This document shows, piece after piece, positions 58,361 through 59,371 of a stretch of 64,000 bases of DNA. The stretch is from an uncultured Oscillospiraceae bacterium (GTDB lineage: Bacteria > Bacillota > Clostridia > Oscillospirales > Oscillospiraceae). The stretch covers positions 153-64,152 of the forward strand of contig CALXDD010000012.1 in assembly GCA_944386985.1 (NCBI GenBank). The letters are read 5' to 3'. The notes below the pieces were generated by a model. That model was not told the origin of the DNA. It saw only the letters and a program-made list of their open reading frames with translations, and did no database searches. Numbering within the stretch: the stretch's first letter is position 1; every line of letters begins with the position of its first letter. Position numbers and translations under genes: made by a program.

Positions 58361-58492
58361 GTAGGTTTACAAATACACTTTTTCAAACTGCCTTCACTAT
58401 TTCTTTCGGCTGAATTTTTAGAAAATTAAGGTCTCTGACAGAATTTTTTTATTCGCCTGATCAGTTTGTAAACCTACACTTTTTCAAACTGC
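58361..58492. repeat. Inverted and direct repeat array between the recombinase and the CsrA-like gene
   Basis: Perfect 13-bp inverted repeat: GTAGGTTTACAAA (58361-58373) / TTTGTAAACCTAC (58465-58477). Perfect 18-bp direct repeat TACACTTTTTCAAACTGC at 58374-58391 and 58475-58492. Confidence 0.9.
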
Positions 58493-59101
58493 TTATTGCA
58501 TTGCTTTCTGTTTCTCAAATTTCACGGCTTTTGCGTAGAAAGTGTCCTTCGGCATCTCACACAGCTCCGCCGCCTGGCGAAGCGTCAGCTTCTTGCCCCG
58601 CCACGCCCGGTGTACCTGCTGGAAATTGTCCGGCAGAGGCCGGGGCGGACGGCCAAAGCGGACGCCCCGCGCTTTGGCCGCCGCAATGCCCTCGGCCTGA
58701 CGCTGGCGAATGCTGTCCCGCTCGTTTTCCGCCGCAAAGCTCAAAACCTGCAGGACGATGTCGGCGAGGAACGTCCCCATCAGATCCTTACCGCGCCGGG
58801 TATCCAGCAGCGGCATATCCAGCACCACGATATCTGCGCCTTTTTCCTTGGTGATGAGCCGCCACTGCTTCAAAATCTCCTCATAGTTCCTGCCCAGACG
58901 GTCAATGCTCTTGATAAAAAGCAGATCGTCTTTTTTTAGCTTGTGAAGCAGATTTTTGTACTGTGGCCGTTCAAAATCCTTACCCGATTGCTTGTCCAGA
59001 TAGAGATCCTTTTCCGCAATCCCGGCTTCCCGCAGCGCGATGCGCTGCCGGTCCTCATTTTGGTCTTTGCTGCTGACCCGGATGTATCCGTATTTTGTCA
59101 A
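58493..59101 (-). CDS. Small serine recombinase (resolvase/invertase family)
   Basis: 202 aa. TTG start after AAAGGAGG. Catalytic motif [17 protein letters not shown]-terminal HTH ([17 protein letters not shown]). Confidence 0.9.
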
Positions 59102-59371
59102 AGTAGTTCCTCCTTTACCATGTCATAGGCAAATCTCCTAACTTTTTAGTTTACAATAAAATAATCTCCCGTTCCTACCCACCAGGTTCCTGCCCGGGAA
59201 GAAGAAACGGGAGGCTGATCCAATTTTGAACGCCGGAAAAGCGGGCTTTCGCCGCCTGCAGAAGCGCCCATGAATCCCTCCGCTGCATACCGCCGGCTGA
59301 AAAAGATCCCTGTGGAAAGCAATCTGTCTGAGCCGTGTTTTGAGTTTCCGCGAAAAGTCATTTTCTACAGC

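Follow-up and report, generated by a model that had tools for sequence, protein, structure and literature searches.

Evidence for a very small invertible promoter beside a serine recombinase gene, upstream of a csrA-tldR-flagellin cassette of an uncultured Oscillospiraceae bacterium

A stretch of 64 kb from an uncultured Oscillospiraceae bacterium (contig CALXDD010000012.1 of assembly GCA_944386985.1; hereafter the window) was analysed at a locus where a small serine recombinase gene is followed by a csrA-like gene, a tnpB-like gene (tldR) and a flagellin gene, with all genes of the cassette on the minus strand. The locus is very probably a phase-variation switch, in which a very small invertible promoter (inverton) is flipped by the adjacent serine recombinase. 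The segment in question was found in both orientations in assembled contigs from natural samples. An earlier note on this DNA, made from its letters, had drawn attention to the repeats beside the recombinase gene and had preferred an inversion of the 91 bp between them. Designations with L refer to loci and contigs of this analysis.

The switch lies between the recombinase gene and the csrA-like gene and is bracketed by a perfect inverted repeat of 15 bp, whose arms, GTGTAGGTTTACAAA at 58359-58373 and TTTGTAAACCTACAC at 58465-58479, are separated by 91 bp. Additionally, an 18-bp direct repeat, TACACTTTTTCAAACTGC, is present at 58374-58391 and 58475-58492 and extends imperfectly to 34 nt with 79% identity. 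The 91-bp spacing and both positions of the 18-mer, which match exactly, were given correctly in the earlier note, whereas its measures had to be revised at three points: the arms are 15 and not 13 bp long, the gap between the second 18-mer and the stop codon of the recombinase gene (58493-58495) is 0 and not 1 nt, and the inverted-repeat arm upstream of the csrA-like gene ends approximately 53-55 nt, not 56 nt, from the ATG at 58305. With up to 3 mismatches allowed, the window contains the 18-mer twice (0.03 matches expected from shuffles), and the 15-mer has 2 exact matches and one match with 3 mismatches (0.38 expected). Because both are confined to this locus, the repeats are not of the repetitive extragenic palindromic (REP) type within the window, and the scattering of such elements, named beforehand as an observation that would speak against a switch, was not seen there. 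The GC content of the 91-bp interior is 33%, in comparison with 58.5% for the window.

Sites of the Hin family consist of two 12-bp half-sites around a 2-bp core. Two hix-like recombination sites with this 12-2-12 layout, designated P and D, were predicted at the locus together with their cleavage positions, and the position of D was set by mirroring through the inverted repeat. P and D are inverted relative to each other, have a common GT/AC core and lie 115 bp apart from centre to centre (about 11 helical turns). In gene direction P reads GTTTGAAAAAGT-GT-AGGTTTACAAAC and D reads ATTTGTAAACCT-AC-ACAAGCGCAAAC. The elements of the switch and the recombinase gene are located as follows:

58464..58489, plus strand: predicted recombination site P, 26 bp, 12-2-12, GTTTGTAAACCT-AC-ACTTTTTCAAAC; its inner half is the arm 58465-58479, and the site is an imperfect palindrome with an asymmetric AC/GT centre
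58349..58374, plus strand: predicted recombination site D, 26 bp, GTTTGCGCTTGT-GT-AGGTTTACAAAT; its inner half is the arm 58359-58373, and the site mirrors P
58363..58475, no strand: invertible segment, 113 bp between the 2-bp cores, with the 91-bp unique interior at 58374-58464
58475..58492, plus strand: fixed copy of the 18-bp repeat, comprising the outer half of P and 3 nt and abutting the recombinase stop codon
58374..58391, plus strand: interior (mobile) copy of the 18-bp repeat, beside D; predicted 5′ leader when the promoter faces the cassette (ON) and hairpin arm in the opposite orientation (OFF)
58493..59101, minus strand: small serine recombinase gene, 202 aa, TTG start; Pfam Resolvase PF00239, E=1.5e-29, residues 4-147

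Inversion of the segment occurs in nature, as contigs of two species carry it both ways. In contig L100 of the same species (Logan contig, SRR17968134) the right flank is identical to the window at 737 of 737 positions and the left flank has 9 mismatches in the nearest 1000 nt, while the 91-bp interior is identical at 91 of 91 positions only as the reverse complement. The same flipped junction is present in contig L099 (ERZ24773289), also of the same species. Sixteen other samples of this species carry the window orientation, and 4 contigs end inside the approximately 130-bp switch. Ten contigs encoding an identical recombinase were all in the window orientation, and the flipped contigs were found by a look-up based on CsrA. 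For a sister species, Flavonifractor sp. An306 (L013) was compared with metagenome contig L095, the sole contig returned by a metagenome scan with the D-flank pattern. Their 2-kb flanks are 98.8% and 97.8% identical and their interiors are 99% identical, again only as the reverse complement. Between species, the interior of the window is 84% identical to that of L011 in the same orientation, whereas the interior of L013, between collinear flanks, agrees with it at 84% when reverse-complemented and at 46% otherwise. Inverted repeats thus flank a segment which is present in both orientations in sequence data, as in an inverton in the sense of PhaseFinder, and the inversion preferred in the earlier note is borne out by these assembled contigs.

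In order to place the switch among related loci, GTDB genomes were scanned with a TldR alignment, which resulted in 80 loci from Flavonifractor, Intestinimonas, Oscillibacter, Lawsonibacter, Agathobaculum and relatives. The csrA-like and flagellin genes are associated with tldR in most of them. A serine recombinase is encoded immediately upstream of the cassette in 46 of the 80 loci, and 34 are without an adjacent one. The gene order of the window is rec-csrA-tldR-fliC, while most loci have rec-tldR-csrA-fliC. In at least 30 of the 46 recombinase loci, an inverted-repeat pair of 12-26 bp lies between the recombinase gene and the next gene; the sequence of the arms varies between loci and the length of the interior is very similar. 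In 30 related loci, the arms belong to 26-bp imperfect palindromes of 12-2-12 layout, of which they form the inner part. Read in gene direction, P has a GT core where D has AC, or the two share AT. Most loci have site P directly against the stop codon of the recombinase gene, and the interiors are AT-rich (38% GC versus 58% for the loci). From core to core, 22 loci measure 114-116 bp, 6 measure 124-127 bp and a single one measures 138 bp, and these spacing classes of approximately 115, 126 and 138 bp are steps of about one helical turn.

A promoter is predicted inside the segment, with a further conserved tract upstream of it:

58403..58429, minus strand: sigma-28 (FliA/SigD)-type promoter, -35 TTAA at 58429..58426, 15-nt spacer, -10 GCCGAAAG at 58410..58403
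58441..58454, minus strand: A/T tract GAATAAAAAAATTC (minus-strand reading) upstream of the -35, read by eye

A TTAA/TTAT-N15-16-GCCGA(T/A)A motif is present in all 31 interiors examined, its version in the window being TTAA-N15-GCCGAAAG. It points toward the cassette in 8 representative genomes and in the window, and toward the recombinase gene in 23. Because the promoter of the window points to csrA-tldR-flagellin, the window is assigned to the ON state. Judged by its motif, the promoter is probably sigma-28 dependent, and the main text of PMC13418256 independently calls this region FliA-dependent. The suggestion that a flip could switch transcription of the CsrA-like and TnpB-like genes is therefore considered supported, by the natural polymorphism and by a promoter inside the segment that faces either way. 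The TTTACA of the repeat arm, formerly regarded as -35-like, gave way to this sigma-28-type promoter. A sigma-70 promoter composed of the repeat arm and the interior (TTTACA-N18-AAAAAT) matches at 9 of 12 positions only and was not adopted as the main promoter. An AAAAAWTTTT-like tract occupies the same relative position in nearly all interiors (a by-eye reading with no statistic) and may be an UP-like or bending element.

The recombinase carries the catalytic YGYIRVSS (RVSS) motif and a conserved C-terminal helix-turn-helix region, as is characteristic of small serine recombinases. Its best solved relative is Sin/Bin3 (2r0q, 99.7 bits, E=1.7e-27, covering the catalytic domain and the E-helix), whereas Gin (68 bits, E=6.8e-18) and gamma-delta resolvase scored lower, and none of the NCBIfam equivalog cut-offs was reached (51 bits for the Mpi invertase model versus a cut-off of 272). 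Invertases of the Hin/Gin type are hence not its closest relatives. Across loci, the sequence of the recognition helix tracks the outer 5 bp of the half-sites. The helix MPxGTFYAKA occurs with (G/A)TTTG, MPVS(T/S)FY(A/Y)KA with TTC(T/C)A, MPVTTFYEKA with TTTCRG, SYQTFLRRAK with GTTAC, ISHHTFLK with GGGCA and MPKSTFYDAALRAE with GGACG. Even single-residue changes (G, S or T in MPVxTFY) pair with GTTTG, TTCTA or TTTCRG sites.

From its adjacency and from this co-variation, the adjacent enzyme is inferred to be the catalyst of the inversion. Catalysis in trans by another recombinase, with the adjacent gene being unrelated and for instance a remnant of a mobile element, is improbable. It would accord with the TldR loci that are without an adjacent serine recombinase, some of which have a tyrosine recombinase instead, and the link between enzyme and site is drawn here from sequence. 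However, the abutment of P on the recombinase stop codon in most loci, the 12-2-12 layout typical of small serine recombinases and the match of recognition helices to the outer half-site sequences, including the single-residue changes, all argue for the neighbouring enzyme.

Two genomes each contain two recombinase-switch-TldR cassettes. In genome CATLJA... these are L057 and L076 with half-sites GGACG and GGGCA, respectively, and in genome CANDKT... they are L048 and L072 with half-sites CACGC and GTTAC. The recognition helices of the recombinases differ within each pair, which suggests orthogonal, independently flipped switches.

The similarity of the enzyme to the Sin/Bin3 resolvase, its closest solved structure by sequence, and the presence of a half-site and core of P in the 18-bp direct repeats would also fit a res-like site of a Sin/Tn552-type resolvase, with the direct repeats as subsites and deletion or cointegrate resolution as outcome. 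This option, which the earlier note had kept, is very unlikely. The full sites are inverted and the product seen is an inversion, while the 101-bp deletion product was found in 0 of about 19 same-species contigs; the interior repeat copy comprises only a half-site and core, and the surroundings in this species are not those of a transposon. Directly repeated multi-subsite res sites with deletion or resolution were not observed. The direct repeats are instead predicted to be the arm of an orientation-dependent hairpin, which is described below.

An equally small chance is given to a larger, Hin-like inversion of approximately 690 bp, which would include the recombinase gene and would use a second site at 59141-59156. 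The motif at this place, ACTTTTTAGTTTACAA, had been noticed before with coordinates that were off by one (59140-59156), and it lies within a conserved block upstream of the recombinase gene:

59102..59195, minus strand: conserved leader/promoter block of the recombinase gene, near-invariant in the window, L011, L013 and L095; includes the motif 59141-59156

Upstream of this block of about 95 bp the sequences of the window, L011, L013 and L095 are unrelated, and the block is kept only in this clade. It is probably the promoter or leader of the recombinase gene, and by this comparison it marks the left boundary of the module. The motif was rejected as a third site, as only the 8-mer TTGTAAAC is common to it and a half-site and as it is part of the conserved block. 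This common 8-mer, together with nine related loci in which the recombinase gene lies on the opposite strand relative to tldR, would be in line with the larger inversion. On the other hand, the motif agrees with one half-site in 8 of 12 positions and with its counterpart in 5 of 12, and in the 19 other loci scored the region upstream of the recombinase gene shows no enrichment of the half-sites of the respective locus, whose matches were no better than controls. Moreover, the loci with divergent recombinase genes keep the inverted-repeat pair between the recombinase gene and tldR, the orientation of the recombinase gene relative to both neighbours is constant in every same-species contig spanning the gene, and no contigs joining 59157 and the following positions to the reverse complement of the recombinase gene were seen. 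The larger inversion, regarded as the less likely alternative already in the earlier note, is thus unsupported.

That the repeats are static, acting as operators of a regulator or as an RNA or DNA stem with no recombination, is hardly credible. Arms that vary between loci and nevertheless stay complementary also fit a conserved stem or palindromic operators, and all contigs of three other species show a single orientation, but the near-identical sequences with the interior both ways and collinear flanks in two species essentially refute this explanation, and the sigma-28 motif faces either way across species. Scarcely any weight is given to the flipped contigs being assembly artefacts, for although inverted repeats can confuse assemblers and four contigs break inside the switch, the 15-bp arms are shorter than assembler k-mers (31 for Logan), so that k-mers running across the junctions from interior through arm into flank must have been present in the reads, and flipped states come from independent samples, assemblers and species.

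Besides the promoter, the inversion also relocates one copy of the 18-bp repeat. In the flipped state this copy lies opposite the fixed one, with the inner half of P between them, and the two would form a perfect 18-bp stem directly past the recombinase stop codon; contig L100 displays exactly this OFF-state arrangement. When 28 loci were flipped in silico, the P-side structure was stronger in the OFF than in the ON state in 23 of them, with means of -27.3 and -18.3 kcal/mol, respectively (Wilcoxon p=2e-4), and with -30.4 versus -11.5 kcal/mol for the window. An asymmetry of this kind was absent on the D side in the same flip (p=0.94). The extended-palindrome score favours the OFF-state hairpin in 21 of 27 loci. 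In many loci, among them L027, L023, L074, L016 and L087, the OFF hairpin is GC-clamped with an A-run and a T-run beside it, and such hairpins look like bidirectional intrinsic terminators. The OFF hairpin is proposed to serve as an orientation-dependent insulator by terminating transcription.

In the proposed mechanism, recombinase dimers would bind the two 26-bp sites, P beside the stop codon of their own gene and D upstream of csrA, and exchange at the inverted GT/AC cores 115 bp apart would flip the 113-bp segment. In the ON state, the sigma-28/FliA-type promoter would fire into the csrA-like gene, into tldR with its guide RNA and probably into the linked flagellin gene, and CsrA and TldR would, by published analogy, silence other flagellin genes. 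In the OFF state, the promoter would point at the 3′ end of the recombinase gene, and a strong hairpin would form directly after that gene. This hairpin would insulate the cassette by blocking both read-through from the recombinase gene and antisense transcription from the flipped promoter. The regulatory consequences downstream of the switch are extrapolated from related systems.

Several points weigh against a phase-variation switch of this design. The evidence comes from contigs across samples and not from both states inside one clonal population, the orientation is skewed 16:2 across the same-species samples, and three other species have one state in every contig (4 of 4 in the P0057 clade and 10 of 10 in the P0009 clade). 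A loop of 115 bp is very tight for synapsis of two serine-recombinase sites, and no accessory factor was identified. Furthermore, the co-variation of helices and half-sites is confounded by phylogeny, and for the flagellin gene dependence on the switch and on a promoter of its own are both possible. Finally, a simple terminator scan misses the OFF hairpin of the window species, which has a 10-nt loop and a T-run that is weak or not clean, and the term terminator is therefore used as a hypothesis.

A more far-reaching interpretation is offered tentatively and is given somewhat less than an even chance. According to it, the switch is a device of three parts: a sigma-28 promoter on a tiny enhancer-free substrate with integral helical turns, a probably bidirectional terminator hairpin present only in the OFF state, and a private specificity of recombinase and half-sites that has co-diversified, with some lineages using a tyrosine recombinase for the same job. 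Its substrate may be one of the smallest of serine recombinases and may work without a Fis-type enhancer; Fis is not known in Firmicutes. Because the specificities would have co-diversified, several csrA-tldR-flagellin cassettes per genome could each be flipped by their own enzyme.

The remaining parts of the cassette in the window are the following:

57832..58305, minus strand: CsrA-like gene, 157 aa, ATG at 58305; Pfam CsrA E=5e-13, CsrA domain at residues 1-50
56557..57723, minus strand: TldR (TnpB-like) gene, 388 aa; Pfam OrfB_IS605, Cas12f1-like_TNB and HTH_OrfB_IS605
56144..56556, minus strand: non-coding region, in which the guide RNA of TldR and the 5′-UTR (untranslated region) of the flagellin gene are expected by analogy with the main text of PMC13418256
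55331..56143, minus strand: flagellin gene, 270 aa, last gene of the cassette; Pfam Flagellin_N E=3.5e-44 and Flagellin_C E=3.2e-28

The CsrA-like gene is the first gene downstream of the switch, and its product has a long charged C-terminal extension of approximately 100 aa and a score under the NCBIfam CsrA cut-off. In L003, L007 and L009, where the recombinase is identical, the CsrA-like protein has a 50-aa in-frame deletion in this extension (107 versus 157 aa). In TldR, the Asp motif of RuvC-I is changed to GLNYS (Asp replaced by Asn) and the Glu of RuvC-II is lost (CVRxxDL) throughout the clade, with N201 being invariant in 19 clade members. By these residues the TnpB homologue is a nuclease-dead TldR of the csrA-associated clade of Oscillospiraceae, which has been described before (PMC10705468, PMC10691335 and the main text of PMC13418256). 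Rfam gave nothing relevant, and no match for 56144..56556. Within the window, no convincing target of the TldR guide was found, the matches being only 11-16 nt long and the longest of them A-rich and of low complexity, and a second flagellin gene was not found in the window.

Perfect hairpins are located on either side of the module. One of them, at 59371-59410, has an 18-bp stem with A- and T-runs beside it and lies between a cyclophilin-like gene and the recombinase module, and the other, at 55220-55262, has a 19-bp stem and lies directly past the flagellin stop codon; both are likely terminators bounding the module. The region 49515-55190, downstream of the flagellin gene, encodes a large GT2 glycosyltransferase of 712 aa on the minus strand, together with a glycerophosphotransferase-like protein and a methyltransferase, and may be a flagellin modification cluster.

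Additional observations were made in the related loci. In L116-L125 (TldR P0073 clade; the same locus as L035, CAJUJQ010000083) a 307-aa tyrosine recombinase (PF00589) is encoded upstream of tldR-csrA-fliC and replaces the serine recombinase. In this clade, a segment of approximately 130 bp between inverted repeats of 18-19 bp, GGATAATACACTATTA(T/C)C, is located approximately 300 bp upstream of tldR and was found in both orientations (5 versus 5 contigs) with identical TldR. Tyrosine recombinase genes are also adjacent in L025, L031, L044 and L077. Second, shorter resolvase-like open reading frames (ORFs; phmmer scores 59-101) are present between tldR and csrA or just upstream of tldR in L017, L020, L026, L052, L056/L057, L084 and L088, and may be remnants or extra recombinases. 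The recombinase-TldR cassettes of L091-L094 (P0057 clade) have a relaxase gene (PF03432) as their close upstream neighbour, which suggests that some cassettes are on mobile elements. In L106 (GCA_949104865.1) a run of N, a scaffold gap, lies exactly inside the switch interior, and contigs with TldR P0057 are mostly only 2-5 kb long (110 of 179 index blocks). Both observations are consistent with assembly breaks at switches of mixed orientation.

This kind of switch has already been described in 2025-26, and the locus adds another member in a different species. The main text of PMC13418256 (bioRxiv preprint July 2025) reports hin genes and inversions of approximately 120 bp with a FliA-dependent promoter upstream of csrA-tldR loci, places the inversions of F. 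plautii just downstream of hin and draws the parallel to Salmonella. The work presented there is a comparative observation, and its main text reports no inversion experiment. A literature search found no other reports of this kind of switch. As in the loci of that text, a small serine recombinase gene is combined with csrA-like, inactivated tldR and flagellin genes, the recombinase gene being upstream of the others and the switch immediately downstream of the recombinase gene; the size of the switch (15+91+15 = 121 bp), its occurrence in both orientations and the type of promoter are alike as well, with the FliA promoter being recognised here and in the 31 interiors as a sequence pattern. Unlike those loci, the present one is from a different, uncultured species. 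In the main text of PMC13418256, none of the following was found: the site model, the spacing classes by helical turns, the hairpin of the OFF state, the co-variation of recognition helices and sites, the same-species evidence for both states and the tyrosine-recombinase variant.

Three other known systems are related. In the Hin/hix system of Salmonella (fljB-fljA), a serine recombinase likewise acts on two inverted 26-bp sites around an invertible promoter, which drives an alternative flagellin and a repressor of the other flagellin (PMC3798978). In that system the inverted DNA is about 1 kb long and includes hin, and a 65-bp Fis-bound enhancer is required (PMC3798978). In contrast, the promoter fills a segment of only 113 bp here, the recombinase gene lies outside of it, the promoter is of the sigma-28 type and the repressors would be a CsrA-like protein and an RNA-guided TldR. 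Two inverted 26-bp sites of the 12-2-12 layout are nevertheless found here as P and D and again in the 30 related loci, and the recombinase appears to be Hin-like by function while its sequence is nearer to Sin than to Gin. Sin and the Tn552 Bin3 resolvase, the best sequence match among solved structures, are also of Firmicute origin; unlike the present enzyme with its inverted sites and inversion product, Sin acts on res sites in direct repeat, which it resolves with the help of an accessory site II and HU. The flagellar switch of Clostridioides difficile is larger than the present one and lies in the flgB leader. It is similarly a short invertible element for flagellar phase variation in a Firmicute, but passages of PMC5386303 and PMC7446863 describe it as Rho-mediated and acting after the start of transcription, not by promoter reorientation. 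Its recombinase, RecV, is a tyrosine recombinase encoded elsewhere in the genome.

The locus itself adds little past the description of 2025-26, and the testable additions are the direct evidence for both states within one species, the 12-2-12 model of the sites, the classes of helical-turn spacing, the OFF-state hairpin and the pairs of helices and half-sites. These pairs could supply small orthogonal modules of invertase and site for synthetic biology. With regard to the biology of these abundant gut Clostridia, the locus couples the control of flagellin, both RNA-guided (TldR) and post-transcriptional (CsrA), to a site-specific inversion of DNA, and would work like the Hin-fljBA switch of Salmonella with different parts. 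Because the identity of the flagellin affects TLR5 recognition, phage adsorption and motility, the ratios of ON and OFF states in metagenomes could report on host-microbe interaction.

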